Below, one piece after another: positions 11,901 through 36,441 of a stretch of DNA of 36,441 nucleotides. A program made the translations under genes and the position numbers. Position 1 is the stretch's first letter, and each line of letters opens with the position of its first letter. A model generated the notes under the pieces. It was not told where the DNA came from. It worked only from the letters and a program-made list of their open reading frames with translations, and did not search any database. This DNA is from Catajapyx aquilonaris (taxonomy: Eukaryota): positions 124,001-160,441 of the forward strand of contig KZ538011.1 in NCBI GenBank assembly GCA_000934665.2, given 5' to 3'.

Positions 11901-12413
11901 GAGTAAGGACCATTCCGATAGAAGACCAGCTGGTGGCCGCAATCCGTTACGACCGCAGCTCTAGGATACGGATGGCGGCGGCCAACTCCATCCTGGACCT
12001 ACAGGCCTTCACCCCGACCATCTACCGGGCAGTCAAGGCCTGCTGCTGCGTCGAGGACAACCCAGAGGTCTGCGAGCTTCTCCAGAGGATCGTGTCCATG
12101 GAGGACAAGGAGATAGATGAGGTAATAAGGCCCAATCGAGCAATCCGCATCTGATGTTAACACCATTTCTGAACCATAGCCGTTGTTCGAGCCTACCAAG
12201 AAGACATCAGGAATGACGCTGCTGTTTAAGAGGAACGAAGAGACCTCTAATAAACCGCAGACCCCGCAGTCTCCTCTTGGAAAGGAACCCTATACGCTGT
12301 CCGAAGAGCTGCTGAGGAGCCATCTGAAGGGTCGGGTCGCAAACCAGAGGTCTTCAGTACCGAGGGTGTCCAGTATGAAGGTCGCTTCAGAGGAGATCCC
12401 TGCGAGAAAGTGA
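8936..12413 (+). CDS. HEAT-repeat (PBS-lyase/armadillo-type fold) protein, possibly HEATR4-like; about 857 aa, 9 coding exons
   Basis: Exons 8936-9192, 9300-9528, 9599-9812, 9878-10002, 10060-10734, 10795-11212, 11273-11464, 11892-12121, 12180-12413. All introns are GT-AG with consistent phases, total 2574 nt with no internal stop. C-terminal half has HEAT-type motifs: SSDWETRLRVCKTL, DLSSEVRWAAASAL, SKNMVIRMEALKLA, DPSVNVRESAILAIG, DRSSRIRMAAANSI. HEATR4 orthology is only a guess from architecture. Confidence 0.8.
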
Positions 12414-13121
12414 CAGACTCCGAAGTCAAGGATGTCGGGGACACTGAAAACGCCAATCAACTGAGGTCGCGTTTGCATGTTCAAGGACGTGGCATGACAG
12501 GGGAAAAAAATTTACTGTTGCCGCACAGTGGTGCAATTAAAGGGAAGCATTTCCGTGACGGGGACGATAAGGACATCTTTTATTCAGGCGATGGCTGGCT
12601 GGTGGAAACAGTGGATAGCCGAGTCAAGGTTGGGGGGTGTCTTTGTGCGAAATTTTTTGAGGAGGTTTTTCCTTCGAAAAATAAAGTGTGGGGTTTTTTT
12701 ACTGGAATTTGTGCCGGGGTCATTTCTTGGAATTTGGGAGCGTGTGCATGGTGTACTACACGCGTATCGATCATTGCGGTCAGTGACTCGAAACGAGTGC
12801 AAGGGCACGGATTGATTATTTTTTTATAAGGAAATGTCATAATACAAAGAGGTCGTTTCCTTCGCAGGGCGTGACTTATTCATAGGTTTACAGCAGAGAC
12901 GTTTGGCGAATCTTGGCGCGTGGTTCATTCGTTGTGGTTACCAAGTCTTGTGTGTCTGAGAGCAAGGTTTCATATCGGCTCGATAATAGTACATGGAGGT
13001 GATGTGCGAAGGGCGTAGGAGACAAAAGGTGCATTGATTAGAAGCAGGAGGTCATGGTGCGGCACGAAATGGTTTGGCCCATTGTCGATGTAACCGGACG
13101 TCCGTCATGACGTGAAGAAAG

Positions 13122-14632
13122 ATGGCATGGTCTCCAAGGCTGGTACCCTTGGTGTTTGTCCTCCTGTTTCTGGCTGTCGAGTCGGTTGAAGAAGTGACGG
13201 AAGTGAGCGATGCAAACACCACCGAGTATGAGATCTACGAGTTTTACGAGTATCCAGATGACGACTACTACATCTACGATGTTGAAGAAGTGGAGGAATC
13301 AGCGGTGATAGAACATCCAGAAATGGCTCGACTGACCGTGGATGACGAAGCTGCAGCTGCAGCAGCCGGTAAAGCGCCAGGTAAGCAGCAACGGAAACCT
13401 CCAGGTAAACAGCAGCGGAAACCTCCAGGCAAGCAGCAGCAGAAACCTCCAGGCAAGCAGCAGAGGAAACCTCAGAGGCAAAAGACGCAGCAGAGGAAGG
13501 GCCAAGGAAAGCCAAGAGCAAGGAAAGGGAACAACAAGAGGCCAGGAGGAAAACGACGACGGACTCTGAGGGTCAGCAAAGACTGTGAGTGTGGCGTCGG
13601 TGGAGGAACCTCAGGGGGAAAGATGCGGATCGTCAATGGCCAGACAGCATCCGTCAACGAGTTTCCATGGATGGTGGCCATCATGCAGGACGGCCCTGGA
13701 GCTAAAGACCGACAGTACTGCGGGGGATCGCTGATTAACAACCTGTACGTGGTGACCGCTGCTCACTGCGTGGTGCCTTTCAAGGCCTCCGAGATTGTCG
13801 TCAGGCTTGGAGAACATCGGCTCAGCACCAACGACGAATCAAAAGTAAGCTATCATAATATCGTAATTTAGACAGATCATTGTGCATGGCAACATGTTGC
13901 AGCTGCAAGTCCGCCAAGTGGAGAGGATCATCATAAACGGAAACTACAAGCCGAAGACAAACACGAACGACATTGCTCTGATCAAGATGAAGAAGCCGGC
14001 CAACATCAACAATGCGGTGGGCACCGTTTGTCTGTCGCCTGCCAATTTCAATTTCAATGGAAAGCAGGCAACGGTGTCCGGTTGGGGTCGGACCGCCCAA
14101 AATGGAGCAGCACCAGACGAGCTCAGAAAAGTGGACGTGACGGTGAGTTAAAGCCATTTGAATTCCAAGATTACTAACAAAAAATTGTCGCATTGAATTT
14201 AAAATGTCAGGTGAAGCCCTAACACGATATATGATTACGTGAATTTCAGATCGTGTCAAACAAAGAGTGCCAGAGCAGGTACAAGTCCGCAAATATCAAC
14301 ATTACACCCACCATGATGTGCGCAGGCGGAGACAAACGCGATTCGTGTCAGGTATAGGGAATTCCTATAGATTAATCGACGGGTTATGACATCACGGCTA
14401 ATGACCTGTCACCTCTTTCGTTTTGTTCCAGGGTGACAGCGGAGGACCCATGGTGGTGGCTGGAGACAAAGGCAAGTCAGCCCTGGTCGGAATCGTGTCC
14501 ATGGGGCTCGGGTGTGGAAGCGAACGGTTCCCAGGAATATACACGAGGGTCGGAGCATACAGAAACTTCATCAGAAAATATGCAAGAGACGGGGTGTTCT
14601 GCCAGGACGGGAATCTAAAAGGGAAAAACTAA
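13122..14632 (+). CDS. Secreted trypsin-like (S1A) serine protease zymogen, copy 1; about 421 aa
   Basis: Exons 13122-13844, 13903-14142, 14250-14351, 14432-14632. Signal peptide MAWSPRLVPLVFVLLFLAVES, CECG linker, activation site KMR|IVNG, catalytic motifs TAAHC, NDIAL and RDSCQ-GDSGGP (Asp189, trypsin-type S1 pocket). Confidence 0.95.
13377..13472 (+). repeat. Coding minisatellite, 4 x 24 nt, encoding PGKQQ(R/Q)KP
   Basis: ccaggtaagcagcaacggaaacct unit repeated four times with small substitutions inside protease copy 1. Confidence 0.9.
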
Positions 14633-15962: not shown

Positions 15963-16276
15963 TTAAAAAAGACACTTCGTGCTCAATCATATAAATACTT
16001 ATAGTATGTTATAATTTGTTAATTGGTGGAATATGGCCTACTGGAAACCAGTGCTATTAATACCAATAATTGTACGGTACTGTACATATTACAGAAACGT
16101 GTGAGCCAATATCATGACATTGCGTAACTATATACGAATGGCTCGCACAGCTGCTGATCGCAAATCCCAGTGCTCAGTAGCGTGCATTTGAAAAGGCCAA
16201 AAAAAAAACACATTCACACGTCGTAATCCATCGTAATTCCTCATTATCAAAATGACCACACGTCTGTCTTGACGCC

Positions 16277-17702
16277 ATGCCTTCAAAGTGGATCCCCATT
16301 CTAATTCCCCTGTTGTTGCTGGCTGTCGAGTCCACACATGAAGCTGAAGCTACAGTTGAAGTGAATAGTGACAACGCCACTGACGAGTACGAGCTGATCG
16401 AATACGTCGAGGACGACTTCATGTCCGAAGGTGCAGGTAGAGTCCAGGTCATTACCAGAGAAGCCAATAGACCTGCTGGAAAGCAACAAGCGAGACAGCC
16501 AACTGTAAGGAAAGGAAAGAAGAAGCCTCTGAAGAAGCTGAAGGTCAACAAACGGTGCCAGTGCGGTGTCAGGAGAGAAGGTTCAGGCAGCAAAACGCAT
16601 ATTGTCAATGGCGAAACAGCATCGGTCAACGAGTTTCCCTGGATGGCGGCCATCATGACACGCAGTTCATGCGGCAAGGTCCTTTCCCGCTGCGGAGGAT
16701 CACTCATCAACAACCGGTGGGTGGTGACCGCAGCCCATTGCGTGGTGCCCTTCAGAACATACGAAATCATAGTCCGACTGGGTGACCATCGACTCAGCAA
16801 ACTTAAAGAAACTAAGGTCAGTCCGTTGTATGCGTACTGAAAACCACACTGCACTATTTGAGGTGCTTTTATGCTTCTACTCCTTTAAAACACCTTCCTT
16901 ATTTGTTGAAGGCAATGACTTTGATACTTTGCGTGCAAAAGGCTCATTATTTCCGTTTAGTTGCAAGTTCGACGCGTGGTGCGGATCATTATCAGCGGCA
17001 ACTACAGACGAAAGACGAATGTGAATGACATTGCCCTGCTCCGGATGAATAGACCAGCCAAGATCAATGGCAGAGTGGGTACAGTTTGCCTCTCGCCTCC
17101 TACCAAATTTGAAGAAGCAACTGCCACTGTCTCAGGATGGGGTGCTTTGAAACAAAAGGGGAAATATCCGGATGTACTTCGGAAGGTAGAAGTTGAGGTA
17201 AGAAGGTTACAAAGTATTGCAGAAAGTGACATTGAAAAGCTAGTTTTCAAACACCATGATTTTTTAAAACTCCTGGGTCACTTATCTATAACAACCACTT
17301 CAGACCATGGCCAACTCAGATTGCCGGGAAAAGTACAAGAAAACAAAGGTGGCAATTCGACCCACCATGATATGTGCAGGAGGAGAGGGAGGCGATTCTT
17401 GTCAGGTAACATTTTCCGAGAAATTGATCATTGATTGACTTGCTGTTGCACAAGAAGAATCAAGAACAATAATAACTAGACTCATCTATGACGCCAATGT
17501 TTTCCAGGGAGACAGTGGAGGGCCGCTGGTGGTCGCCGATGACGACGACCATTACATGCTAGTTGGGATTGTGTCACAGGGAATAGGGTGTGGCAAGTTT
17601 CCAGGAATCTACACACGTGTGGGAGCCTACAGAAATCTCATCAGGAAGTTTACCAAGGACGGCATTTTCTGCAAGGATGCGTATCTCAAAGGGAAAAAAT
17701 AA
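16277..17702 (+). CDS. Secreted trypsin-like serine protease zymogen, copy 2; about 357 aa
   Basis: Exons 16277-16816, 16961-17197, 17304-17405, 17508-17702, same intron positions as copy 1. Signal peptide, CQCG, activation site KTH|IVNG, TAAHC, NDIAL, GDSCQ-GDSGGP. Confidence 0.95.
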
Positions 17703-18800
17703 TAGAAAAAAAATTAAAGCGGTGAGGTAACTGTTTCAATGTGTACAATATTGTCTAAATGAATGCAATCAAATCAGTTTGCAAAAACACTTTGCACTGA
17801 ACAGTTTACTGCCACATGTAGCAAAAACTCATTGAAATGTTGGCAGGACCAAACAAAGAGTTCTGAATTATCAGGTTTCAGCTCCATTCCGTCCTTGTAA
17901 TTATATGCAGGGTATATACTCAATTACTGACAATTTGCCTAATAAATTGTGTACTATGCAACCTTGAGGGAGTTAAGACTGGGGGAATTAATAATACAAT
18001 AAATTTTGCCTTAATTTCAATATTGTTTCATGATTACTGTGAGTAACACAATCAAAAATTGTTTTTAAAGGCTTGTATAGCTGTTGTTGTAAAATAGTTC
18101 TAAGACTATGCGTAAAACCATCTGTCTACAAAATTACCTCATAAAAGAAATTCCCCAAAAGTGTGTTTTACTAACATGCTGTACTGTATATACATGTTCT
18201 TATATCATTGTATTTTTTTTTGTTGCGAATAAATCGATAATCACGTGCGTAAATGAAACCCGTCTCCAATTCTACCTTTTCAAACAAACCCGCCAAGGTT
18301 ACCTTCTCGGACTTGCCAGTGAAAATCGGTTTGTTATGACAATTATCGAGTGCGTGAGATAAATTGGCGAGCCATTTCCACGAAAAAACGTCCCACAAAT
18401 TTGTCTTTCTATACCGGATATTGATTTCTGCTATCGCCCTATATACTGTAGAATCGGAATGATTCCAAAGTAAATTGACTGCCTATAAATTCAAGGGCAA
18501 GTGCGCAGGCTGTGTACCTTGTTTAATTTATTGCCTCAGATCACTGTGCGTGTTGCATAAATGACAGCCTGCATTTCAAGTCCAAGCCGATCAGGCATTT
18601 CCACATGGACAGGATCCATGTAGAGAAGTGCTAACTCGTACTCGCTATAGTGTTGTGGTTACCAACTTTTCAATGGCGTGAGAGACATGTGAAACTCTTC
18701 GCTTCACGCCACCCACTCTCGCCATAGAAATTCGCTAAAGGTCAAATGAGAGACAATGCATTGATCTGGCCACATTGTGACGGGTAATGCCGCCAGGAAG

Positions 18801-20184
18801 ATGGCATTGTCTTCTGGGCTGATAATCCTCTTGTTGCTGCCCTTCTTGTCGGCTGATGAAGCTGGAGTCACATCAAGTGAAGTGGACGTGTCCAACAGAA
18901 CAGAAGAGTATGAACTGTACGAGTACTTTGAGGACGACGAGACCTATTTTCACACCGATTACGAAGACGGATCAGGCGAAGTCGAGGATTCGGCTCGGCT
19001 TAGTCTGACCCCACAAGCCAGAGGCAAGAAGCCAGGAAGGCAGCAAAAGAGACCTCAAAGGAGGAAGCAGAAAAGACCACGAGGAAGGAAGCCAGCAAGA
19101 GGAAGAGGTCAGCAGGGCAGAGGTCGCAACACACTGAAGATCAACGAAGGATGCCAGTGCGGTGTGGGTGGCGGTGGAGGTGCCAGAACTCGAATCATCA
19201 GCGGACAGGCATCGGAGATTAACGAGTTTCCATGGATGGCTGCACTGATGGAACGTGGTCAAGGTGGTCGGATGTTCGCGTTCTGCGGAGGAACGCTGAT
19301 CAACAACCTGTTCGTGATCACAGCAGCGCACTGCGGGATTGATATGAGCCCTGCTGCTATTACAGTCAGATTTGGAGAGCATAGACTCAGCAATAAGGAT
19401 CAAACCAGGGTCAGAAACCATTCTCTTTATTCTATAGCACGCTTTTCCCTATCACTATAATCCTTTTTGAAACAACTCCCATAGAGTAATGATTTTAATT
19501 ATAGTCGTTTTTGTTCAGTTGCAAGAGCGAGGTGTGGCTAAAATAGTAATCCATCCCAAGTACCAGCCAGGACCTAACATACACGACATTGCTGTCCTAA
19601 GACTGAAGAGTCCGGTCACACTTGACCCTGGTGTGGTGTGTCCAGTCTGTCTGGGCCCAGCCAGGCACAACTTCAATGGCGAAAGGGGCATCGTGTCCGG
19701 ATGGGGAACTCTGGTCGAAGGCGGAAAAACTCCTGACGAGCTGCAAAAAGTCGAAGTCACGGTGAGACTTGATGATGTGTTGCACTATTATTTTTTATAA
19801 GACGTGTGTTGCAGATTGTATCGAACAAGGCGTGTCAGAAGGCGTACAGGACAACTGACATCAGGATAACTCCAGGAATGATGTGTGGAGGAGACAGCAA
19901 TGGTGATCATTGCCATGTAAGTAGGTCTAAAAATTGCAAGAAAGTATTATTGCATTACTTTTTTTAAATTATTTTACTCACAGGGGGACAGTGGAGGACC
20001 TTTAGTGTTCACTGGTCCCAAAGGACGTTACGCACTGGTTGGAGTTGTGTCCATGGGATGGAAGTGCGGAAGCGACAGGTACCCAGGAGTCTACACCAGA
20101 ATTTCGTTTTACAGAAATTTTATCAGAAGAGCCACCAGAGACGGAGTGTTCTGCCGGGATGGAAATCTTATTGGGAAAAATTAA
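18801..20184 (+). CDS. Secreted trypsin-like serine protease zymogen, copy 3; about 384 aa
   Basis: Exons 18801-19409, 19519-19761, 19815-19916, 19984-20184. Signal peptide MALSSGLIILLLLPFLSA, CQCG, activation site RTR|IISG, TAAHC, HDIAV, GDHCH-GDSGGP. Confidence 0.95.
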
Positions 20185-22115: not shown

Positions 22116-24297
22116 ATGCCGACCTTGGAAGAGTTATTAGAAGGGATGTCCCTTAGCCGCAGTGTGGTGGAAGAGAAGGCAGCAGGGGGAGACGCTGAAG
22201 AAACGGAGGGCCCCGTGGGACCAGGGAGCGACGCCCTAGACGGCAAGCAGCAACAGCAGCAGCAGCAGCAGCAGCAAGAGCAGCAGGAGCAGCAGGAGCA
22301 ACCGCAGCAGCAGAATGTGGGCGACGAAGAGGGCAAGGTCTGCGACCGAGGAAGGTTCAGAAGCAACGCGAGAGAGGAGTGGATGGGCCGGGGGATTCCT
22401 GAGGGAGGAGACGCGAACGCGACCTGGATCATACCCGAGCTGAGGGTCTGCAACTGCCACTTCAACTGGGACCTGGAGAAGTACGAAGTCACCGCGAGGA
22501 CCATGCTCCTGACTCTGATCAGGGTGAGTGGGCCTCGGTGCTATTGTTGCAATGACCTCCTCCGGTTGATTGTGTCTGTCCGCAGGGAGACGAGGAGTAC
22601 TCGTGGAGCGAAAAGAACGCCTTCCGAGACCTGGACACGGGCTGCCTCAAGGCATTCTACTACTACCTTCTGGGAAGGTGCCCAGAGGCCCACGCTTGCC
22701 TGGACAGCTGCGAGAAGGACGCCCAGGACCCGACCCTGGCCTCGGGGAAGAGAGGACTGAACTACCTTCTGTCAGCCAACAGGGCCTTCGTCCTCTGCAG
22801 GCAGGGAAGGCAGAAGGAAGCCAGGGAACTGCTCCAGGAGAATGAGGTCTCCTGGGACAGGCTCAGGCCAGTGGACATGGCCTTGGTCCTAGGGGTCAAG
22901 GGGCTCGCGTTCAGCCATTACGGGAGCAGGGGGAACAAGAAGGCAGCGGACATATTCTTCGAGTCCAGCAGGTAAAGCGTCCTTTGCAAGAAGAACTCTG
23001 ATGATTTTCTGATGGGCCTCCTCCTCACTCTTACAGGCTGGAGCCGTGGAACCCCGAGTGGCACTTCTGGGTGGGCAAGTGCCTTGGGAGGGTCCGTCGA
23101 GAGGACAGCATGGTGAGCAGGCTCCCATCGCCTCTGGAGTGCAGGTCCCTGGAGAAGGCGGTGGAGCTGAACCCGACCTCCACCTACATGCTGTTCCTGG
23201 CCCAGTGCCTGCGGGAGAAGGCCACGGCCTTGTTCCACAGGCAGACCGCAGGGAAGGGGGAGCTCCACAGGCTCAACCTGAGGTCTCTCAACCTGTACAC
23301 CCAGGCTCTGGCCATGAACCCTGACTGCCCCAGGACCAACGTCCGGTGCGCCGAAGGGTTCATCCGGCTTCCCTACGCCTACAGGAAGGAAAGGTCCGCC
23401 GAGAGGTGCTTCGAGCTGGCCTTGAGGAACGCCCCGGACAACAGCATGGTGCACCACAAGTACGGCTGCTTCCTGGAGCGGTGCAAGGGCAACCACCGTC
23501 GGGCCATGGAGCACTACGAGCTGGCCGCTGGACCCGACCTGCACAACTTCCCTGCCCTCATGTCCATGACCAGCCTCAAGATGAGGATGGATTACTCCTG
23601 GAACCCGGTCCCTCTCCTGGAGAGGGCCATCCAGGCACACAGGGAGTCCCCGGTCAGGGTGGCCTCCCTCCTCTGCTTCCAGGGGATGTACGTCTGGACC
23701 ACCGAGAAGAACTACCAGGCCACCTTCGACTACTGGAAGAAGGCCATCCGGGTCGACCCGTCCAGCAGGAACCTCTTCGTCAGGCGCTCTATCATGGTGA
23801 GACGCTAACTACATGCACCTAGGTGATGAATCAACGCGGGTAGGGACGGAGTCACGCCTAGCGAATTCTTAATATGATTGCTTTAAAAAAGCGGGCCTCT
23901 CCCAGAAGGAAATGCTGATTCCTGACTGTTAATCGTTGGTAACCATATATAGCATCGCCAATATGTTAGCCAGAGATGTCTTTTTTAAATTATTTGTACA
24001 CGACAGTTCAGCGCGCTTCGCCACGACCCAGAGGACCACCTGACCGTGTGCGACATCCTGATTCGAGAGCTGACCTGGCGCCTTCCCAGAGAGCCCGAGT
24101 CTCCTCTGAGGAGGGAGATGGCCGAGGTGTTGGAGGAGGCCAAGAAGCTGCAGGAGGCCAACAAGGCAGTGGGAGACCCAGATCGACACCCTCATCAGGA
24201 CAGGTCAAAGAGCAGGCAGGCCCAGCACCAGGGACAGCAGCCAAACATCCAGTCACCCGCGGCCCACAACTGGCGCCAAAAGTCGTACCCAAAGTAA
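22116..24297 (+). CDS. IFIT-like tetratricopeptide repeat protein, copy 1; about 608-614 aa, 4 coding exons
   Basis: Exons 22116-22523, 22586-22971, 23037-23778 (alternative phase-0 donor after 23796) and 24007-24297; frames join cleanly. Acidic/polyQ N-terminal extension, then CNCHFNWDL and TPR helices RLEPWNPEWHFWVGKCLGR, LEKAVELNPTSTYMLFLAQCLRE, ALRNAPDNSMVHHKYG. Exon 2 is absent from the ORF track. Confidence 0.85.
22248..22313 (+). repeat. CAG-rich coding repeat (polyQ/QE)
   Basis: Encodes QQQQQQQQQQEQQEQQEQPQQQ in IFIT-like copy 1. Confidence 0.95.
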
Positions 24298-24861
24298 AGA
24301 GACAACTACCCTGTGGGACATCCGATCGCAAAGGACGGCGTTATATCTGTTCTTGTCCTGGTTTAACAGTAAAGACAGTCTTTACGGGGTCAACCAGGTG
24401 GTTTTTATTATTCTGATACAAAGTGAAAGTTTGAGCCAGACGTGGAGTTATGTAAATATCAGCACTCTTTTAGGTTTTTTAAAGTGCCGTATAGCCTTTA
24501 GTATAATTAGCAGTAGCGTTCAAAGATATGAACGAGCTTATGCAAGTGATGAAACAACTACACTACTCTTGAGAGTGAGGTGTCTTTATCAGCCATGTCT
24601 TGTCTATTTAGTACTTTCCACACAAACAGCAGTGAAAATGCTTTGTGTTTCAGAATTTATTCTGGCGGTTGCAGCACAAGTTCCGGAAAGTGAACTTGAA
24701 CTGAATTCTCCGCCTCGTATTGAGGAAAAGTGTTGGCTACAATGAAGGAGGGAGGGCCGAGAAAAGAGCATGTCGCCCAAGGCCAGATTTCAAGAGTGAA
24801 CACTGGCCATAAGCATCTTAAAATTTCAAGCTCAAAGCTCAAATGTATAGGCATACATAAC

Positions 24862-24872
24862 GGGAATTTCCC
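24862..24872. promoter_or_regulatory. Candidate NF-kB (Rel) site GGGAATTTCCC upstream of IFIT-like copy 2
   Basis: Matches GGGRNNYYCC, about 1.7 kb before ATG 26536 and upstream of a candidate 5'UTR donor at 25432. Motif match only. Confidence 0.35.
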
Positions 24873-25040
24873 TTTTGTACCATTCAAAATAAACATCGAC
24901 CACATTGTCTTCGTAAGAAGAGCAATGCAGGAGCAATGAACATAATGAGGAAACATTAGTGTTGTTTTTAAGAAATTACTTGTAGCGCATAATTTTTACT
25001 CATAACTACTCGTATTTCAAAGTCAGCAGCTATTCTTATT

Positions 25041-25082
<42 letters not shown>
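25041..25082. repeat. (ACA/CAA)14 microsatellite
   Basis: Read directly. Confidence 0.95.
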
Positions 25083-26389
25083 TCACGACATTTCCCTATG
25101 AGGGGTAGTCAGCGATGAAGGGAGATGCAAGCTAACCCAACATATGAACTAATAAAACTCATGAGAAAGAACCTAAAAACAACCTGTCCCACCCCCCACC
25201 CCTGCCCACCTCAGACATCACCTTATCCTCAGACATATTCTTATTACAGTAAATAAAATTGGCGTTTATTGCCAACGCTGCATTTTCGAGGCATTGCACT
25301 GCGTCACAGGAGGAAGTGTGCATTCTGCTAGTCTGCACAGCCAGATTCAGTGGGTCTACTCGCAGTTTCGCAAGCTGAAAGATCTGCATAATAATTATAG
25401 CAACTGTGTCTGGCGTAAAGGAGAGTCTGAGGTAGGTGCAATATACAGGCATCTCCTGTTAGGTATACCGGTACGTAGAGAAGGAGCTTGACCGTAAGTT
25501 ACTACAGTACTCGTAGATAAGCGCGTTTTAATATACTGACCGGTGCACACTTAATTGGTATACTGATTACATAATATACCCCGATCTAGAAAATAATAAT
25601 TCCTAGTGTAAATGTGTGTGCGGATCTTGTACAGGGTGGTGTATTTCCCAGGCCAGGAATTGGTAACTCCAGCAATCATTTAAAATAGCGTCTTTTTTGT
25701 AATCATATTCCCAGTTTGTAACTATCTTCAGTATAGTTGCTATGCGCCTATGCACCTCGACTATCTCCCGATTCATCACCAATATTTGCACCATATACTG
25801 TAGTAAAGTAGAGGTAATTTTGTTTCCTGGACAATGAGACTATTGTTTTCTTTTCTCGGAGCCAATTCCTTTCTTTCCGTTGCCAGCACATTATCTCATG
25901 TATGAATGACGCCATTGGCATTGTGTGGTATCCACTTGCAGATCCGGCGAGGTCAGCAGACAAAGTCATGTCAAAGTCCAAAGGATGCTTACTCACTTTT
26001 CAGTTCAGTTACGTCGGAGTGTGGCCGCTGACTGTCAGACAATATATTGACAGCCTTTAAAATTAGCTCTCGTGGGCCTGTAACAGTTGACGAGTAACTC
26101 TACGTCGCAGGACTTTCGCTAATATAATTTAAGTTTTCTTTGCCGGGATTAGAATAGTTTGTCGGCTCTTTGACACTAAAGTATTTTTTTCAACATCGAA
26201 CCTTTAGTCATATCCGGTTGGAATTGAATTGTGGCCATGCCTACATTATCATTGTTATTTTTACAGATACCTTTACAAGGGCCTTTATTGTCGTAAAGCT
26301 ACATCTAACTGTAACGGTCATTAAGTAGGCTATATTTTCCACATATAAGAACGAGTCAATTGCATAATCAAATCGTTACACGCCTGTTT

Positions 26390-26439
26390 TATGCATCAAT
26401 GGCAAAAGTACTGTACAGTACTTTTGCCATTGATGCATA
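26390..26439. repeat. Perfect 50-bp palindrome with no spacer
   Basis: tatgcatcaatggcaaaagtactgt|acagtacttttgccattgatgcata. Confidence 0.95.
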
Positions 26440-26535
26440 GTTACCTAGAATGAAATAAGGGTAAAATATTTTCAGTGTCCCTTTCTGACACTTTATTACC
26501 TTGATTGCAATTTATTTCGCTTTACAGTATTAAAA

Positions 26536-28288
26536 ATGGCATCGCTGAGGGCAGAAGAGAAGGACGAGTCTGGTGAACTAATGGACCAGCTGACAAGGCT
26601 GACCCTTGAATGCAACCAATCCGGAGAACAGAAAGCACTACCTAAGTCCACTCCCTCGGGACTGGGAGATCTCCAGTGTCACTTCAACTGGAAGCTGTTT
26701 GACATGGCCACGTCCTACACGGTGGCAGAACTGATATCAAAATTCAAGTTGAAGGAGGCAGAAGACATGGATTCGCCAGATTCATGGCGCCTATTCATCC
26801 ACGACATGTTACTGTCATTTTGTCATGCCAAGGAATCCGATTTCAAGCCGGCGGAGCAGGTTCTGGACAAGTGTGTCGAATACGCTGCAAAACTAGAGCG
26901 TTTCAGCAGCGGTTTGATGTACGTGGTGGATGCAAACCGCTCATGTATGGATCATCTCCAAGGACGTCATCGCCTCTCGAAAGAAAGAGTGTCGAAGATG
27001 ACCGCATTCGAGCGCCTCTCCAATTCGGACAAAGCAGCCGTTCATGGGATTCGGGCCTTGTCACTGATGCAGCTGGGAGTCGCAGGCAGCAAACGAGCAC
27101 AAGAGTACATCGAGAAGGCCATCGACTTGGATCCAGACCATGCTGAATGGCACTTCCTGAAGGGCAAGGCGCTGATGAGGATTCGCCACCTGGAACACCC
27201 ATTCGGATGCCCGACAGATGAAGAAGCACTTCATCTGGATAAAGCTAACTCAATGAACCAGAATGCGTTGTACCTGGTGTTCCTGGGACAGTGCATGCGC
27301 GACAAAGCAAGATACCTCCAGTTCACCCGAAGACTGGGAATGACCCCACCCGTCATGATCGCATATGAACAGTCTCTTGACTATTACACGAAGGCTCTAC
27401 AAATGAACTCAGTTACCCCAAGTATCAGCATAAGATGCGCAGATGCGTTCGCGATGATGCCTCTCCCTTTCCAGAGATATGGCATGGCTGAAGCGTGCCT
27501 CCAAGTGGCCCTGGAACTGGATCCTGACAACAGCATGGTGCTTCAGAAGGCCGGTACGTACTACGAGGTCATGCGGGACTGGAACAGAGCCCAGACATGT
27601 TATGAGAGGTCGATTGAGACTGCTCACGGGCATGGAAATTTCCCGGCGAGTCTAAAACTGCTCAACCTGAAGTCCACGCTTGACCTTTCTTTCGACCCGT
27701 TTCCAATGATCCACGACATGATGAGCAAGTACACCGAAAGCCCGAGCCATATAGTGACGCAACTCATTTTACGTGGCCTGTTTCACTACACACGGAGAGG
27801 CAACATGGAGTCAGCAGCAATGGATTTTCATGAGGCCATCGTCACTAGTCGAGATGATGTGGAGCCAAACTTTATGGTATGTTCAATTTTACAAGATGGT
27901 ATGCGGACGTGGGGAATAATTTTCATAAATCGGATGCATATTTTGCGGGACATTCAGGTTTTTATCATCCACAACTTTCTTCCATTACTTGTTAAGTTTT
28001 ACAATGCAGTGCTGTCATTTGTCAGAAGGTTGCGGATATATAAGCACTGCTTTACTGTTAATTTCTACCTGGATTTTCCAGCGAATCTCTGGTTATTCTT
28101 GCTTCCGGAACACTCTGCAGTTGGATGGTCTCCTGAACGATCTGGAGAGTATGCTGCGGGTTATGGAGCAGTCTTCTGAAACGGAGGTCCAAGATCAAGG
28201 GGATCGACTCGCAAATTACTTTATACCAGTGGTGAGGATGGCTCGAGGGATGGCTTCCCAGAGGAAGAGGTGCTTCTGTCAGCGTTGA
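26536..28288 (+). CDS. IFIT-like TPR protein, copy 2; about 515 aa, 2 coding exons
   Basis: Exons 26536-27876 (donor ATG|gtatgt) and 28082-28288 (acceptor ttttccag). An acceptor tttacag at 26521-26527 lies just before the ATG. Motifs DLQCHFNWKL, IEKAIDLDPDHAEWHFLKGKALMR, ALELDPDNSMVLQKAG. The 547-aa ORF in the track is read-through into the intron. Confidence 0.9.
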
Positions 28289-28740
28289 TTGTTGTAAGGG
28301 TTTCCAGTACGAAAAAAAATGGTACATTATTATTTTGTGTCGTGTGTACTTGGATTTTGAAGAAGACTTTATATTATAGAGTGCCTATGCCTATTCAGTA
28401 AAATAATCAGGGAATGTTGCATCTCAAAACTAAGCAGTTACAGTTTGCTGGAAATAGGGTAAAAGGAAGGAAAATCTGAAATGAGTAAGACTCCTCTCAC
28501 ATAATCTTGCTCGAGGTTTATAGAAGTATGTAATATTATGCAACATCATACAATATGGAGACAGCATTTCAGCAACAAGGAAATAATTATTTTGCGATAT
28601 CAGATTATTTTGATGCGTCTTTCCATATTTCTCAATACTGTTTGTGAAAGACATCGATCAAACGTCACTATTCCATCTGCCATAAAATCCATGCATTTCA
28701 ACCAGCCCCCGGACACTACCTCTACGTTCTGATTTTATCG

Positions 28741-29032
28741 CCTGCCGGGGCGTTTTGCAGGAGGGGCTCACCTGAGAGCGCCATGAGACCTTTCACTGCA
28801 CAGTTATGTGGCGACCCTACAGGACTACGCTGAACCTTATAGGTGCAAATGGGAAGCGCTACATGCGGGTCCAACATGGCCGCCGGCGACCATATTGGGT
28901 CCCCCAATGTAGCGCTTCCCTTTTGTACCTATAAAGTTCAGCGTAGTCCGGTAGGGTCGCCACATAACTGTGCAGAGGCTCAGGTCTCATGGCGCTCTCA
29001 GGTGAGCACCTCCTGCAAAACGCCCCGGCAGG
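28741..29032. mobile_element. Foldback/MITE-like long inverted repeat (about 290 bp; degenerate outer arms to about 28711-29050)
   Basis: cctgccggggcgttttgcaggagg...gggaagcgctacat pairs with atgtagcgcttccc...cctcctgcaaaacgccccggcagg over about 125 nt per arm. It lies in a segment of about 690 bp absent from the paralogous flank of copy 3. Confidence 0.8.
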
Positions 29033-30042
29033 GGGTAGGTGGGAGTGTCCAGACCTTAGTATTCTATGACCATGATTTTAACATGGCCTTTTCTTTCAAT
29101 GGCAGAATACATTATATACCAGGATTATTCCCTTACTTGTTATGCCACCAGTGCAGTGTCCTCATTATTTATTTTATGGTCAGCAGTTGTTTAAAAATTT
29201 AATGACTTCTGGTGGCACCCTACTGCATTTCACTCTTGCTATTACAGCTGTTACATAGGATGACATTGCAGTTATCAACCTTCCAGTGTTTGCACATTTG
29301 CATTGAAAATAACCGACACCAGCATTTACTGGAATCATTACAAGCTCTTCTTGAAGGCGGAGCAAATATGTGAGTTTTCACTTCCTGTTGACAAAAACCG
29401 AGCTGTGCCATTCTTATGTTTTGTATAATTCAGTATTTGGGGTACAGTACTGAACCAGAGGAATCCCTGCCTCTTCAGATTTTTTCCCAACGTTTCTTGT
29501 GTTCTCTTGTGATTTTGAAATTGTCTTTGTGCCACTATATCCGGTTCCAAATGAAATAAAATACTTCAATGATTCGTATTTAATTACATACCGGTATATC
29601 ATTATGGTCATTTTTAGCATCACCCTGCAGGGGGGAATCACATAGTCAGATGAAAAGATGCCAAAGGAGAGTCAGGCTCCATATGGGACTTGTACACTAT
29701 GTACAGTATATCTTGCTGGGCTTCGGCCTTCGATGTTTTATTTAGTCAGTTATGTGGAGGTGTCACTTTCAATAATTCCGTTGGAGTTACAGACAGTATT
29801 CACGATTTCACGTGCTTGTGCATGCTATCTTTGACAGGCTGGATGTACTGTACGTATGTGCAGTAAAAGTAAATGTTACCCGCGATAAGTCAACCATGCT
29901 TTCTGGATACACCGAACTCCTTACCATGTGGTTGGCAACACTTCTGACACCTGCCAAAAATGCCTTCCCTATTGGCTTATGCCTTAGTTACTACTTAATT
30001 GGAGTAATATAACTCACATATTATGACCGGCGTGTGTGTTAT

Positions 30043-30257
30043 GGGGCCATACACATATTACGTCGTCACATTTTTGACATTTTTGAACCCCCTCGTCATA
30101 CTTCGTCATCATTTGGCCCACTGGTTTTTTGTTAGTTTATTCATCCCAACTTGGACCCCCCTCCCACTCTCATCACCTTTGGTCATCCATCAGGTCCTAG
30201 CAACCCCCCCCCACCCCCNCCCCCCGTTCGAGGATTACGTAATATGTGTACGGCCCC
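30043..30257. mobile_element. PIF/Harbinger-like MITE, 215 bp
   Basis: Terminal inverted repeats ggggccatacacatattacgt and acgtaatatgtgtacggcccc (1 mismatch in 21), with an exact 3-bp target site duplication TAT on both sides. Confidence 0.85.
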
Positions 30258-30372
30258 TATCTGCACAGAGCTGCACAGCATGCTTCAGGCATGCTGCTCA
30301 CATTTCTTTCTGGCGTGTCCAAATTGGCACAGCATCCTTCAGAGGAGGCACAGAAGTGGGAAGGATTCCAAG

Positions 30373-30412
30373 GGGGATTCCCCTCTGGTATCGTGTAGGT
30401 CAGCGATTGGTT
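30373..30412. promoter_or_regulatory. Candidate kB site GGGGATTCCCC (30373-30383) plus CCAAT box upstream of IFIT-like copy 3
   Basis: Symmetric kB 11-mer followed by cagcgattggtt; the same block recurs at 35951-35990. Confidence 0.5.
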
Positions 30413-32723
30413 GTTGCCACGAGGAGAACTTGGCTGCGGGAAAATATTAATATTTAAATGATAACCACAGGAATTAAGGAGGAAAAATTAAAATGCGGGT
30501 AAATTTTCAGCCTTGACGGTCACGGGTAAAATTGGGTATTCAGCGCCCTCCTGAGAGGTTTATGGACAACTCATGTTGACAAAAATGGCCGCTTCGGATT
30601 CCTCCACTCCACATGCTGTCCTCCAAGCGTGGCTCCAAGGGAAAGGATAAGAGGGTTACTCCCACGCGGACAGAGCACATTCTCAGGTTGCTCGTTCACA
30701 GTTCAGCGTCCGCCATTTCGCCTGTCTTGTTGGGTCTTTACAGAAGGTTCGTCCAACAGTCTCAGGTAGGTGCTGCATATAGCAATTAGCTAGACCTTGA
30801 GCTAGGTGTACGCATACACATACAGTAATTACAACGCAGAGTTGGAGGTTCGTTGCACATGTTACACTTGCATCCGGATCTCAAACCCTGTGAGTTTTTA
30901 CCGCGACTCTTAATATAGCCTACTGCGCACTCTGGAGTTGTGTTAATGTTTACATTGGGCATTTTCCGACGCATATTTTGCAGAGGAAACCTATAGGTGT
31001 TTTTTCATATGTGAACATAGAAGTCCTTGGTAGAGTATACGTACAGATGTAATGTACACCGCTTTGTCAATGAGTGACATTCCTCTCTGTCTCAGATGAG
31101 ACGGGAGGGGACTAGAATGAGTTATGATCCCATTGTACAGTTAACTTTGCCAAACTGTGTTTGTACGAGGACGAATACTCGTAGTTTGGCAGTTTCACAC
31201 GTCCCTGGTAAGCTAAAAACTACCTGCACTACTGTATCTTGTCCGAGTTGTCAGCAATACACCTTAATACACTCTGCAGGAATTTCTGCAGGTATTCACT
31301 CTGCAGGAAGGTGCTGCATGGCTATGAAAGTTTGTGGCTGAATATTTTTCAAATGGTGCGGATTGTTCACCCCAGCGGCATGTTTAAAAGAAACAATCGC
31401 GACATGTGCAATCCTTAATGTTTACAATATGATGTTTACAATGATATGAACTCCGGAACCCCCCTTGATGGTGTTCGCTGGTGATTTCATGTACTGTACG
31501 AGCCTGAGAATTTGCTCGTTCATATCGGACCACTTCCTCCTTGTGATTCTTTGGCTGGAGTTATAATGTCCATTATTCGCATCGTGTTACATCCATTGCA
31601 AGTGCAGTAAACAAATTTCAATGTGATTCCAGGACAGATCGGGCTAAAAATAGCATATAGAGGTCACCCTACATGTACTCAAATACACATTTTTAGACAG
31701 GCCTGAGCCTTAATTATTAAGAATATTGCAAGTACGCATATAAAAGAGGTCGGTAAGTCAGACGAAATTAAGAAATATTTCTGAAACGTAACCTCACTCG
31801 GACATCAATGCCCACTCTTCCCTTTCCCATCAGCTGACGTCTCCTAACAAAGATCGCGCAGGCCATACCTATGTTTGAATCAGATACCACGAATTTCAAC
31901 ATGAAAAAATTGATAGCATGACTGTATATCGCGATGTGTCATTCCGCATAACAATACTACATCAGTTTACTAACATACATTATGCAGTGGTTTTGAACTT
32001 TTGACAGCATGAGGGCCTCGTGCGTGCTAATGTAGTAAATACTTTTCCCTCCCATTGGTTTCATATTCCGCTCACCCGGCTGGCCAGCTTCCGAGATAAA
32101 GACCTAGCTGGGTACTTAAGATAAGAAAGCCCAACTGACAGCATTGCAAGTTGTGCACGGGATATATAGCATATTAGAATTTGTTTACATACCGTACTGT
32201 ACCATGGGAAATGAAACATGTTTTTATACGATTTTTTTGTCATAAGGTATGGGGGAAGAGAAGGATGGGTTCGATCGGGGTGGGGTTATGTTTCAGAATT
32301 ATTTCTTCGTAAATAATGGTTTTCTTCATCGAAAACCTTCCATATGAAAGGTTTATAGTATAAGTACAAAATGTAATGGATTTTTTCATATTTTTCACAG
32401 TCATAGTATTAGAAGATACGTAAGCCAACACGCTGTATAAGATGCGCCTTTTTTGCTTTAAGTTATTTTATTTCTTCTGACCCACTGACCTCTGACATTT
32501 GAAAATCCTTCTGCCGAGTATGCGTTTTTTTATTTTAAAAAAGTAGGAGTACGGAGGGTGACATAATTATAATCTACTAACTAAGTGGAACTGTCATAAT
32601 TGCAATTGATCACGCCAGTTTTTTGCCCACCCAGCGATGGCCGCCTGTCAACCACACTAGTGTTATGTATATGAAAAGTTTTCTATGACATGAGATGTGA
32701 CAGTAGGCTGTTTCTTCCTCAGG

Positions 32724-34448
32724 ATGGCTGCTTCTCCATCGGAAAACATTCCCCTAAAGTATCAGGGTCTACTAAATCGGTTGAAGGACCTGCAGTGCCA
32801 CTTCACCTGGAACATACACTACGTGGCACCTGAAACTACATGGGAATCTCACATCAAAGTTTCTATTCAAAAGGAAGAAGCACCTTTTGCTTTTGAATCA
32901 GGCTCCTGGAAATACGTTCGAAAGTTTTTCTTGGCGTATTTGTACTACGAGGCAGGCAATGTGGCAGACTCTGAGGGTAAACTGGATGAAGTGAATTTTG
33001 ATGATTTGTCGTATCTCCAGGGGAACCGCAAGAAGGGGTTGGAATATGTCAGAGAGGCATTTCAGTCCTTCATCAATTTCAAAAAGAATCTGTGGGTGGA
33101 AACGGAAATGATTTTGGACAAGCTCAACTACGAAGATTTGCCAGCGGAGGGTCAAGCTGCGGTTTTGGCGCTGAGGGCCAGCAGCCTAGCGGCAGCTGGA
33201 ATCAAGGGAAACGAAGCTGGTTTGCCATACATCAGAGAGGCCATCAAGCTGGACCCACACCATGCGGAGTGGCACTTCCTGATGGGCAAGGCGCTGATGA
33301 AAATTCGCCACCTGGAACACCCATATGGTTGTCCAACAGACAAAGAGATATGCCACCTGGAAAATGCAAATGCCTTGGAACAGAGTCCGTTGCACTTGGT
33401 GTTCCTGGGACAGTGCATGAGTGACAAAGCAAAATACCTTCACCGCATGCTGCAACTGGGGATGACACCAACAGTCAGGATCGCATACAATCGGGCTCTG
33501 GACTGTTTCTACAAGGCTCTACGAATTAACTCAGATTGTCCAGGTATCAACATCAGATGCGCAGATGGGTTTATGATGATGCCTAGGCCTTTCAAGAACT
33601 TCGGTCTGGCTAAAGTGTGCATCCAAAGGGCCCTGGAACTGGCGCCTGACAACAGTATGGTGCTTCAAAAGGCCGGTACCTACTATGAGATCATGCAAGA
33701 TTGGAATAGAGCCAAGACATACTATGAGAAGTCGATCGAGTCCGCTTATGGGAAAGGAAATTTCCCGGCGAGTCTCAAACTGGTCAACGCGATGTCCACA
33801 CTTGACCCCTCTTTCGACCCATTTCCCATGATCCAAGACATGATGAGCAAGTACACCGAAAGCAAGAACCGGATAGTAACTCAACTCGTTTTCCGGGGCC
33901 TGTTTCACTACGCACGGAGAGGCAACATGGAGTCAGCAGCGATTGATTTTCATGAGGCCATCATCACTAGTCGAGATGATGTGGAGCCAAACTTTATGGT
34001 ATGTTCAATAATGGTATGCCGAGTTGGTGAATAATCTCTTATAATGAGGCACAGAGTGACTCTGTATGCATGTCCTGACTACCTAACACACTTCCACATG
34101 TAACTTAATATCAAAGCGTCACACCAATAACATCTTGCAACATTAATATCAGACCGTCGAATTTTTAGGAATAACTGAATCCCAAACAAAGGTTTACTGT
34201 CATTTGTCAGAAATGTTCTGCAGTACTGCTTCAATATTAATTTCTATACTTGCATTTCCCAGCGACTTTGTGGTTACGCTTGCTTCTGGAACAGTCTGAA
34301 CTTGGGTGATCTCCTGAAAGATCTGCACAGCCTTCTGCGGGCTATGGAAATATCGCCTGAAAAAGAGGTCCAGGATCAAGGGGCTCGTCTAAAACTTCAC
34401 TTTATGCCAGTGGTGAAGGTGGCTCTCCAGAGGAACATCTGCTGTTAG
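32724..34448 (+). CDS. IFIT-like TPR protein, copy 3; about 486 aa, 2 coding exons
   Basis: Exons 32724-33998 and 34263-34448 (ends ...QRNICC stop). Acceptor ttcttcctcag lies immediately before gATG. Motifs RLKDLQCHFTWNI, IREAIKLDPHHAEWHFLMGKALMK, ALELAPDNSMVLQKAG. AATAAA at 34578. Confidence 0.9.
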
Positions 34449-36002
34449 GATATATCTCAGCTTCGCTGATGTTACGGGTTTCCAGTCCAAAAATGCTACC
34501 AGTATTTGCATATTTACAGTATGTAAGCTACTTGGTTTTTGGGGAACAATAATGTGTACACTATACGGTACGTATTGAATAAAATAATATGGGAGGGTGA
34601 TATCTCAAAACTGAGCAGCTGTAGATGTTCTGAGAGTAGCCTACAAGCAAGGAAAATCTGTAATGAGTATGACTCTTGCCGTAGAATCCCACTTGAGGTT
34701 TATAGAAGTCACATTATTCAGCATCTTAGTACAATATTCAGACAGGAATTCATCAGCAGAGAAATAATTTTGCGATATTAGACTATTTTGATAAATCTTG
34801 CTATATTTCTCTCTGGAAGCAGCATTTACTGAAATTATTACAAGCTTTTATTGAAAGCTAAGCAAATGTGAGTTTTCACTTACAGAATTTGACAAAAACA
34901 AAGCTGTGCCGTTCTTGTCATTTTTGTAAAATTCAGTACTATCTTGTACATGTAGTACTGAGCCATATGAATTCCTCCCACGTTCCTCCGTAGTTTCTGA
35001 TATTGTCTTGTGATTTTGAACTCGTCTTTGTGCCATTATATCCAGTTGCAAATACAATAAAATGTTTTGGTGAGTCATATTTACAGTAATTATTTGGCTT
35101 CTTAATTTTTGATAGCTTTTACAAGTTGGACGTACGTACAGTATGTGCAGTTTTACAATGTTACCTGCGATAATGTAAATGCAAGCCAACCCCTCACCAT
35201 CTGAATGGTTGACACAGTATCTGTGCAATGTACTGGAATTATGTATCCCAAACGTGTCATCAGGTTTCGTGTGGTAGTCTGGGAAACGCTATTGATATTA
35301 TTGGTATCATCTAGGTAATCTCGGTAATCTCAGTCTGCTGAATCATACTAATGTTTCATACTATCTTGTCTACTTTATATCTACTTACTCATAGTACGGA
35401 ACGTGTATGACTCTTATCAATAATAAAAGTGCAGTGGATTGTTTCATGCTGATTTTGCTGTAATTGTTTGATGACATCACGGGACTAATTTTGTAAACAA
35501 TATTCTTTGAATTGTATGGCTCAGATTACACCAAACACCAGGCTTAATTAAGCAGGTTACATTTAAAAACAACTTGTCAAATCACGAAGCAACCAGAACG
35601 TGTATTATCGGAAATGAAACTCGGGTACTGACGTCACTAGCATTTCATATTGTCAGTTACATTGTTAGCATTGTTGAGAGACGTTGTTGTGGATGGCCAT
35701 CTGTACACCAAATCTGACATAATTATCTTCTTCATCTAAGTTACTGGCATATTGTGAACATTCTGGAACCTGCGGCATAAGATGCGTTCGATCGAGCCTT
35801 ATGTCTTGACTTGCAAAATTCACACCTTAACGAGGGCATGATACCATGTAATGATCTTATCTGCATGTGTATGTGATCTACACTCACTTTCCTCTGACGT
35901 CTCCAAATGGGCAAAACATCCTTCAAGGTGAAGATAAGTGGAGCTGTCGAGGGGATTCCCCTCTTACGTCCAGCTGTTCAGCGATTGGTTTGTGCCACGA
36001 TG
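34449..36002 (+). repeat. Paralogous 3' flank of the tandem duplication unit (homologous to about 28289-30425)
   Basis: Collinear matching blocks: 28390-28633 with 34570-34811, 29320-29565 with 34820-35065, 29845-29890 with 35130-35175, 30295-30425 with 35882-36002. Confidence 0.8.
35951..35990. promoter_or_regulatory. Second GGGGATTCCCC kB site plus CCAAT block
   Basis: Same 11-mer and cagcgattggtt as at 30373-30412; a consensus donor AG|GTGAGT follows at 36202. Confidence 0.45.
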
Positions 36003-36441
36003 ATCACTCACCTGACTGCATTTGTAATGAGTGTTGGTCTGACCGAGTCATACCGACATCCTACATAAGTAGCCTGTTATGCTGTGCCACAATTCAAAAC
36101 CGCAGCAGTACTCGTCCTATCAGGTGCAGAAATATCACCACTCTGCACTGCAGCAGTGTTTATTATTCCGACTCTTCGATAACACGAGCATCCCGTTTAA
36201 GGTGAGTTTCTTGCATTCACAGGGCATTCCCATTATTCGGAAGAGATAAATTTTCCTAAACTATTATCACGTAGCCTATACTTCAGGACGGGGACTAAGT
36301 TATAAAAAGAAGCACTTTTGAATGAGTGCTGTAAATTATTAATTAACTAGCAGGTTACCCGGCGTTGCCCGGGTATGTTGGGGTGCTGGTAAAGATAGGG
36401 GTACATATCTGTGATAGATTACCTGCTTGTCTTATAGCGTA

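Follow-up and report, generated by a model that had tools for sequence, protein, structure and literature searches.

A tandem cluster of probable IFIT homologues in the arthropod Catajapyx aquilonaris, with a proposed role in sequestering RNA 5' ends

What are proteins with the N-terminal signature of the vertebrate IFITs doing in an arthropod, a host for which we know of no canonical interferon? The question is raised by three neighbouring genes, G1, G2 and G3, of Catajapyx aquilonaris, which lie in a 36,441-nt stretch of assembly GCA_000934665.2 (contig KZ538011.1, positions 124,001-160,441, forward strand); this whole stretch is referred to as the window, and all positions below are window coordinates. 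IFITs are among the most strongly induced vertebrate antiviral effectors, and accounts of antiviral immunity in arthropods usually centre on RNA interference. G1 (22116-24297, + strand, 614 amino acids), G2 (26536-28288, + strand, 515 amino acids) and G3 (32724-34448, + strand, 486 amino acids) are three intact paralogous genes in a tandem cluster on the + strand, packed into 12.3 kb, as evidenced by predicted models that are all open and by a tblastn search of the window that returned exactly three copies and zero additional fragments. Their N-terminal motifs read CNCHFNWDL in G1, DLQCHFNWKL in G2 and DLQCHFTWNI in G3, exactly the three CHF(N/T)W strings quoted by the original prediction, a reading of the letters alone that had called the region a cluster of three genes and whose range runs from the G1 ATG at 22116 to the final nucleotide of the stop codon of G3 at 34448. 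The motif is shared by the three genes because the paralogues have a common descent, and not by chance. The reading we favour, to which we assign a probability of roughly 60%, is that the locus is a tandem cluster of arthropod-wide, IFIT-homologous tetratricopeptide repeat (TPR) clamps, which would act as defence proteins that sequester RNA 5' ends.

Single-sequence searches gave only a faint trace of this relationship. G2 alone matched nothing but generic TPR families in Pfam, found one protein in a word-based search and, in a phmmer search of the Protein Data Bank (PDB), placed designed TPRs on top with IFIT5 at an expectation value (E) of 0.012 in a non-collinear alignment. Profiles were needed, and alignment A1 was built from G2, G3 and 23 collinear relatives (25 rows). 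Against PDB chains the A1 profile matched IFIT5 (3zgq) at E 1.4e-21 in one stretch, with profile positions 26-489 corresponding to chain residues 6-468, and matched IFIT1, IFIT2 and IFIT3 at 5.1e-20 to 4.6e-17, chiefly over profile positions 25-157; the only chains above IFIT5 were designed consensus TPRs, which score through repeat accumulation at profile positions 276-438. Against 5.8 billion proteins, with 8000 word-sharing candidates scored, A1 retrieved seven IFIT1-like or IFIT5-like proteins of sharks and rays at E 2e-28 to 6e-17. Among the scored candidates these followed directly after one family member and supplied five of the six best non-family matches; all seven stood within the first eleven, the other four being unnamed. 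Alignment of A1 to the seven with hhalign gave a probability of 99.8 and E 1.3e-28 over 380 columns, and a larger profile of 58 arthropod rows reached E 1.6e-42 over 432 columns. A match to the N-terminal region of the family model, together with CHFTW, was found in 7/7 of these IFITs and in none of the 96 others among the 103 non-family proteins from the 8000-candidate search; those 96 align to the central repeats of the model only. In the ESM Atlas, eight of the ten nearest clusters listed were named IFIT, with a score of 0.97.

The predicted fold points in the same direction. An AlphaFold2 model computed from A1 for G2 exon 1 (447 of 515 amino acids) had a mean predicted local distance difference test score (pLDDT) of 87.1 and a predicted template modelling score (pTM) of 0.83. 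A Foldseek search of the PDB with this model listed 12 rows within ranks 1-14 that were all IFIT5 or IFIT1, all but one of them with template modelling scores of 0.62-0.67 and the remaining one with 0.40; after these, natural proteins scored no higher than 0.49. Alignment with VIA-align to full-length IFIT1 and IFIT5 gave Z 27.1-29.6 and a root-mean-square deviation (rmsd) of 3.4-3.8 Å over 357-378 residues, followed by IFIT2 at Z 21.4 and, as the first non-IFIT chain, SKI3 at Z 20.4 and rmsd 6.9 Å. A pass independent of Foldseek over 48,161 representatives put the best non-IFIT chain at Z 19.9. The modelled residues 36-447 are equivalent to 6-416 of IFIT5, which would leave the last IFIT5 helices to be covered by the 68 residues encoded in G2 exon 2. 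By this model, G2 would have the three-dimensional arrangement of an IFIT, a non-canonical TPR clamp.

Could the likeness to IFITs be no more than generic TPR similarity or convergence? Such an explanation would account for the designed TPRs that headed the single-sequence PDB search and for the generic Pfam assignments, and intermediate Z scores are common among helical repeat proteins; generic scaffolds such as SKI3/TTC37, LGN/Pins and the TPR domain of OGT, all-helical TPR superhelices like the G2 model, are indeed the next-best structural matches at Z 18-20. However, these align over fewer residues at rmsd 4.6-10.8 Å and without a match to the N-terminal subdomain or motif, the profile match to IFITs runs end to end through the non-repeat N-terminal region that 0/96 generic TPR proteins matched, and 7-9 Z units separate the IFITs from the best non-IFIT chain. 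Generic similarity or convergence is disfavoured by the profile match that includes the N terminus and by the Z gap, and we regard it as very improbable.

Alternatively, the arthropod family might be orthologous to a different vertebrate TPR gene near the IFITs, for example TTC22, with the IFITs as a later vertebrate offshoot. TTC22 is a possible non-immune relative of the IFITs and is grouped with them in some automatic classifications, and a literature search for TTC22 together with IFIT returned gene lists only. In the 8000-candidate search and the ESM Atlas, the nearest named non-arthropod proteins are nevertheless all IFITs, and no TTC22 surfaced among the 8000 scored word-search candidates or as a PDB match; we consider orthology of this kind unlikely. 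Full-length collinear profile matches, a common N-terminal motif and an IFIT-specific predicted fold make homology a better explanation than generic TPR similarity, and we conclude with high confidence that, within the set of IFITs and generic TPR proteins compared, the arthropod family is a distant homologue of vertebrate IFITs. The IFIT homology proposed by the original prediction is thus upheld by profile E-values, N-terminal motif and predicted fold alike. The G1 and G2 blocks that it had set beside human IFIT5 are present, the IFIT5 strings it gave agree with chain 3zgq, the blocks are paired in the profile alignment, and the structural searches that it had called for placed IFIT1 and IFIT5, rather than a non-IFIT TPR family, as the best matches of the G2 exon 1 model.

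The window genes fall into a protein family that spans the arthropods, and every member looked up that has a stated organism is an arthropod protein. With G2 as the query, phmmer was run exhaustively against 1.84 billion representatives and found 642 proteins at E ≤ 0.001, of which 12 reached E ≤ 1e-30; many align to G2 residues ~40-430 in a single stretch. Names and organisms were checked for 30 representatives, comprising 22 with an organism, one with a name and no visible organism (UniRef T1JLK3, which we take to be a centipede entry) and seven nameless. All 22 organism-labelled proteins are arthropod: 19 from insects (Odonata, Orthoptera, Phasmatodea, Blattodea, Hemiptera and Hymenoptera, with cricket, cockroach and locust all carrying members), one from a springtail and two from one ostracod. 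Diptera, Lepidoptera and Coleoptera contribute none of the 22, which form a sample and not a distribution test. Most of the 23 named representatives are 'uncharacterized' or 'hypothetical' and three bear other automatic names; none is called IFIT, so that for these representatives the suggestion that automated IFIT-like annotations might already exist in invertebrates is not borne out. The motifs of the A1 alignment are L..L.C(P/H)F.W, EW.F..GK.L.RIRR, RCA.G...LP, P.NS...H..G..YE and GN..A. Within the N-terminal motif the tryptophan is kept in 98% of arthropod rows, the phenylalanine in 88% and the cysteine in 64%, and proline stands in place of histidine in 69%, so that the family consensus C-P-F-T-W differs from the IFIT motif at a position where the window genes themselves have the IFIT histidine.

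In a maximum-likelihood tree of the 58 arthropod rows rooted on the seven IFITs, G1, G2+G3 and two unnamed metagenome proteins form one clade (Shimodaira-Hasegawa approximate likelihood ratio test (SH-aLRT) 88) beside a 47-row hexapod clade, and the ostracod and T1JLK3 branches are placed further out. From the gene tree, the host is probably a pancrustacean outside the insects. The cartilaginous-fish IFIT1-like and IFIT5-like proteins (P0178-P0184, P0188) are the best non-arthropod profile matches and carry CHFTW in 7/7; in the tree they stand apart in a long-branched clade of their own, with 0.8 changes per column to either side of the root and SH-aLRT 100. Paralogues mostly cluster by taxon, which supports a lineage-by-lineage expansion of the family as read from these alignments and agrees with the expanded family that had been predicted. 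Nothing suggests that the genes come from contaminating vertebrate DNA or were acquired from a vertebrate in recent times: the closest relatives of the window genes are arthropod proteins at 23-36% identity as against 14-18% for IFITs, the genes are nested in the arthropod tree, their introns are 62-264 bp long and sit at positions not seen in IFITs, and the best named match of their trypsin-like neighbours is an insect protein. This origin is disfavoured by arthropod kinship, tree, introns and neighbours, and we regard it as having a negligible chance of being correct; the same four observations bear out the arthropod genome that the original prediction had deduced.

Whether such proteins could bind RNA depends on the residues of the predicted channel. 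For IFIT5, the effects of residue changes were taken second-hand from the accessible parts of PMC9677429 (Table 5), PMC3950709, PMC3948006 and PMC13197388, the last of which contains evident residue-name slips. The mutants there recorded as strongly affecting RNA binding are T37V, Q41E, K150M, R186A, Y250F, R253M, Y254F, R260E, Q288E and F337A, and K150, R253 and R186 are given as the three largest electrostatic contributors (PMC9677429, accessible part); the importance of K150 is also noted in the part of PMC3950709 available to us. IFIT5 positions were mapped through the profile alignment onto the 58 arthropod rows. The position of R186 is occupied by R or K in 79% of rows (R in G1 and G2, K in G3), and that of R253 by R or K in 91%, one position later in this alignment and in register in hhalign (R in all three window genes). 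The two key channel arginines R186 and R253 thus appear, from the alignments, to have conserved counterparts in the family. Other positions are kept to a lesser extent: R260 has K or R in 66% of rows, one position later (R in G1, M in G2 and G3), R294 has R or K in 62%, also one position later (R in G1, V in G2, I in G3), and H287 has H in 72% (H in G1, Q in G2 and G3). RIRR, RCA.G and NS..H are the family's most conserved motifs and would thus map to the helices lining the RNA channel in IFIT5.

Several observations weigh against a straightforward transfer of IFIT function to these genes. Identity to the IFITs is low, at the 14-18% given above. The position of IFIT5 K150 (K151 in IFIT1), the lysine that makes the strongest contact of IFIT5 to the RNA triphosphate, is occupied by E in 53% of rows and by K or R in 2%, with H in G1, Q in G2 and A in G3, and that of T37 (R38 in IFIT1) by K or R in 45%, with T in G1, K in G2 and V in G3. 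The counterparts of Q41, Y250, Y254 and Q288 are not conserved in the 58 rows; G2 and G3 carry M307, Q337 and V345/I at positions where the family mostly keeps the residue and G1 has R, H and R; and the register near R253, R260 and R294 shifts by one residue between alignments. The pocket chemistry of IFIT5 is, on this mapping, only partly kept in the arthropod family. Regulatory sequence and gene structure likewise differ from those of the vertebrate genes. Vertebrate IFIT promoters carry an interferon-stimulated response element (ISRE; PMC3688568, accessible part), but the ISRE core GAAANNGAAA was absent from the 1.5 kb preceding each of the predicted genes G1-G3, and NF-kB, Relish-like and STAT motifs in the same 1.5-kb regions did not exceed the window-wide rate. 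The usual vertebrate IFIT gene, as described in the accessible part of the same study, has a first exon of ATG plus 2 nt and the rest of its reading frame in a single further exon (46 of 60 genes; PMC3688568), whereas the coding sequence of G2 and G3 is split by one intron and that of G1 by three, with a common intron near the 3' end. An unseen 5' micro-exon in G1-G3 may nonetheless exist.

Taken against human IFIT5 (3zgq, 4hoq, 4hor, 4hot) and IFIT1 (5udi, 5w5h), the family is alike in the L-x-C-H-F-T-W motif, in collinear blocks over the full length, in the global predicted fold and in arginines at or beside the R186 and R253 positions. It also shares tandem gene clusters and lineage-specific expansion, both of which are reported for vertebrate IFITs in the accessible part of PMC3688568. 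It is unlike them in having Glu or Gln for K150, in the other pocket residues listed above, in the lack of an ISRE within 1.5 kb upstream of the window genes, and in the long R/S/G-rich tails of many insect members. Because motif, collinear homology, predicted fold and clustering agree with the IFITs and K150, ISRE and gene structure do not, we describe the proteins as a distant IFIT-like family and not as the interferon-induced IFIT family proper. Liu 2013, as far as the accessible part of that paper goes, searched invertebrate genomes, rejected the invertebrate candidates it examined and placed the origin of IFITs at the jawed vertebrates (PMC3688568). A literature search, from whose coverage subscription journals were largely absent, found no published description of an IFIT homologue in arthropods or other invertebrates. 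To judge from the alignments, the arthropod family would be a previously unannotated branch of the IFIT architecture with altered pocket residues.

How the cluster arose bears on the kind of function it may have. G2 and G3 are 54.5% identical, and G1 shares 27-30% with either. Non-coding flank 3' of G2 (28448-30430, + strand) is duplicated 3' of G3 (34630-36008, + strand) as collinear direct repeats D2-D6, which are 76-84% identical at a spacing of 5.5-6.2 kb; G2 and G3 are therefore products of a tandem segmental duplication, or have a conversion tract in common. Divergence between the two genes is uneven along their length. Over G2 residues 1-200, synonymous sites are saturated (proportions of differing sites pS 0.79-0.85 and pN 0.50), so that no ratio of nonsynonymous to synonymous divergence (dN/dS) is given for that region; over residues 201-447, dS is 0.32-0.53 and the ratio (omega) 0.32-0.39. 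The core of G2 and G3 is under purifying selection, and the dN/dS analysis, whose ratio was obtained for residues 201-447, gave no sign of positive selection between them. From this mosaic it follows that the 3' half and the flank share a more recent history than the 5' half, which suggests gene conversion or partial re-duplication. G1 is older than G2 and G3 and of different composition, at 62% GC with a third-codon-position GC content (GC3) of 0.85; a few kb further on, in G2 and G3, GC3 is 0.57-0.60. The spacer after G2 also contains two nested inverted repeats (28736-29037), with arms of 56 and 74 nt that are 92-95% complementary, which look like a small foldback element.

The mechanism that we envisage is modelled on the vertebrate proteins. 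Each protein would form an all-helical IFIT-type TPR clamp in which an N-terminal helix bearing L-x-C-H-F-(N/T)-W is followed by IFIT-like subdomains, and this clamp would enclose a channel lined by conserved arginines, which by homology would be R215 and R217 in RIR(R/H) and R300 in IRCA of G2. The channel would hold the 5' end of single-stranded RNA and so sequester RNAs with particular 5' ends, as a putative contribution to cell-intrinsic antiviral defence regulated without interferon. An independent hint toward RNA comes from the insect members, since R/S/G-rich tails with RG repeats are typical of RNA-binding proteins. C-terminal extensions of at least 200 amino acids (200-746 residues) follow the IFIT-like module in 19 insect representatives (among them P0003, P0006, P0007, P0009, P0013, P0021 and P0028); the long tails contain 17-28% K+R and are R/S/G-rich in 18 of the 19, with RG repeats in several. 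The window's own proteins have short tails only, of 61-96 amino acids, and proteins P0002 and P0058 contain two IFIT-like modules in tandem. By analogy with the vertebrate proteins, RNA binding by the family seems slightly more probable than its absence, and an antiviral effector role may be entertained tentatively, at rather less than even odds.

True IFIT homologues might equally have taken on a housekeeping role, binding cellular RNA ends such as those of tRNA or 5'-monophosphate RNA, or serving as a scaffold of ribonucleoprotein granules. The non-conservation of K150, Q41 and Q288 would fit such a role, as would insect RS/RG-rich tails that resemble those of general RNA-metabolism proteins, a family tree that broadly tracks arthropod relationships as expected for a long-kept gene, the lack of any immune promoter motif above background and the purifying selection on the core. 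Against it stand the lineage-grouped paralogues, which imply recurrent lineage-specific duplication, the tandem cluster at this locus and the 0/22 count for Diptera, Lepidoptera and Coleoptera in the sample described above. Recurrent duplication and patchy representation of orders in the sample are therefore easier to reconcile with a defence family that is dispensable and evolves fast than with an essential housekeeping family, and immune-like dynamics, in the form of lineage-grouped paralogues together with tandem segmental duplication, count for the defence reading. We consider a housekeeping role unlikely, though well short of negligible, and prefer the reading of the cluster as RNA 5'-end sequestering defence proteins. 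The IFIT-type antiviral effector family that the original prediction had inferred stands as regards homology, clustering, arthropod host and expansion; its putative effector function is weakened by the non-conservation of K150 and the lack of an upstream ISRE.

The gene models on which these comparisons are based were assembled from stop-to-stop open reading frames (ORFs) in the 22.0-34.5 kb interval of the + strand, by reading the junctions and joining the exons with a script. Every intron is of the GT..AG type. G1 has four exons separated by introns of 62, 65 and 210 bp. Its exon 1 (22116-22523, + strand) contains the ATG, a poly-Q/E tract and CHFNW at 22455-22469, and ends at donor GTGAGT at 22524; exon 2 (22586-22971, + strand), between acceptor CCGCAG and donor GTAAAG, restores the frame and is collinear with G2 by tblastn; exon 3 (23037-23796, + strand) encodes the TPR core, with WNPEWHF, RVRR, RCAEG and PDNSMVHH and matches to Pfam TPR_1 and TPR_17; and exon 4 (24007-24297, + strand), after acceptor CGACAG, encodes a 96-residue tail and the stop codon. 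The two exons of G2 are separated by 205 bp: exon 1 (26536-27876, + strand; 447 amino acids), with CHFNW at 26677-26691, is the sequence used for the AlphaFold model, and exon 2 (28082-28288, + strand; 68 amino acids) follows acceptor TTCCAG and contains the stop codon. G3 is built in the same way, with exon 1 (32724-33998, + strand; 425 amino acids) containing CHFTW at 32796-32810, an intron of 264 bp, and exon 2 (34263-34448, + strand; 61 amino acids) following acceptor TCCCAG and containing the stop codon. The position of the last intron is common to all three genes, in phase 0 after '...M'.

Upstream of the TPR cluster lie three tandem trypsin-like serine protease genes on the + strand (13116-14300, 16256-17434 and 18765-19800), a second tandemly duplicated family adjoining the first. 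Six of six tested protease exon ORFs matched Pfam Trypsin, and each protease begins with a signal-like segment and carries repeats rich in K/Q/P/R in front of a C-x-C-G ... IVNG activation site. One protease exon used as a query gave two matches only, the better of which, a weak one, was a lepidopteran TMPRSS9-like protein at 41% identity. At ~10021-12829, also on the + strand, are ORF pieces of a multi-exon gene, one of which matched HEAT_2 at E 5.7e-06, just under the Pfam cut-off; the remaining pieces matched no Pfam family. The assembly gaps of this draft scaffold amount, within the window, to a stretch of 125 N at 1462-1586 and a single N at 30219.

The changed pocket residues lead us to predict a ligand preference unlike that of IFIT1 and IFIT5. 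As a more speculative extension, which we put forward tentatively and hold to be less probable than not, the IFIT fold and its role as a clamp on RNA 5' ends may predate interferon. The family would then go back to an ancestor that arthropods and vertebrates share and would have survived in crustaceans, a probable myriapod, springtails and many insect orders as an interferon-independent factor that senses or sequesters non-self RNA ends, its altered pocket, with Glu or Gln for K150 and a RIRR cluster, reading a different 5' feature. If true, the origin of the IFIT architecture would move back to early bilaterians, and arthropods, a group that includes crop pests, farmed crustaceans and relatives of disease vectors, would gain a candidate protein that reads RNA 5' ends.

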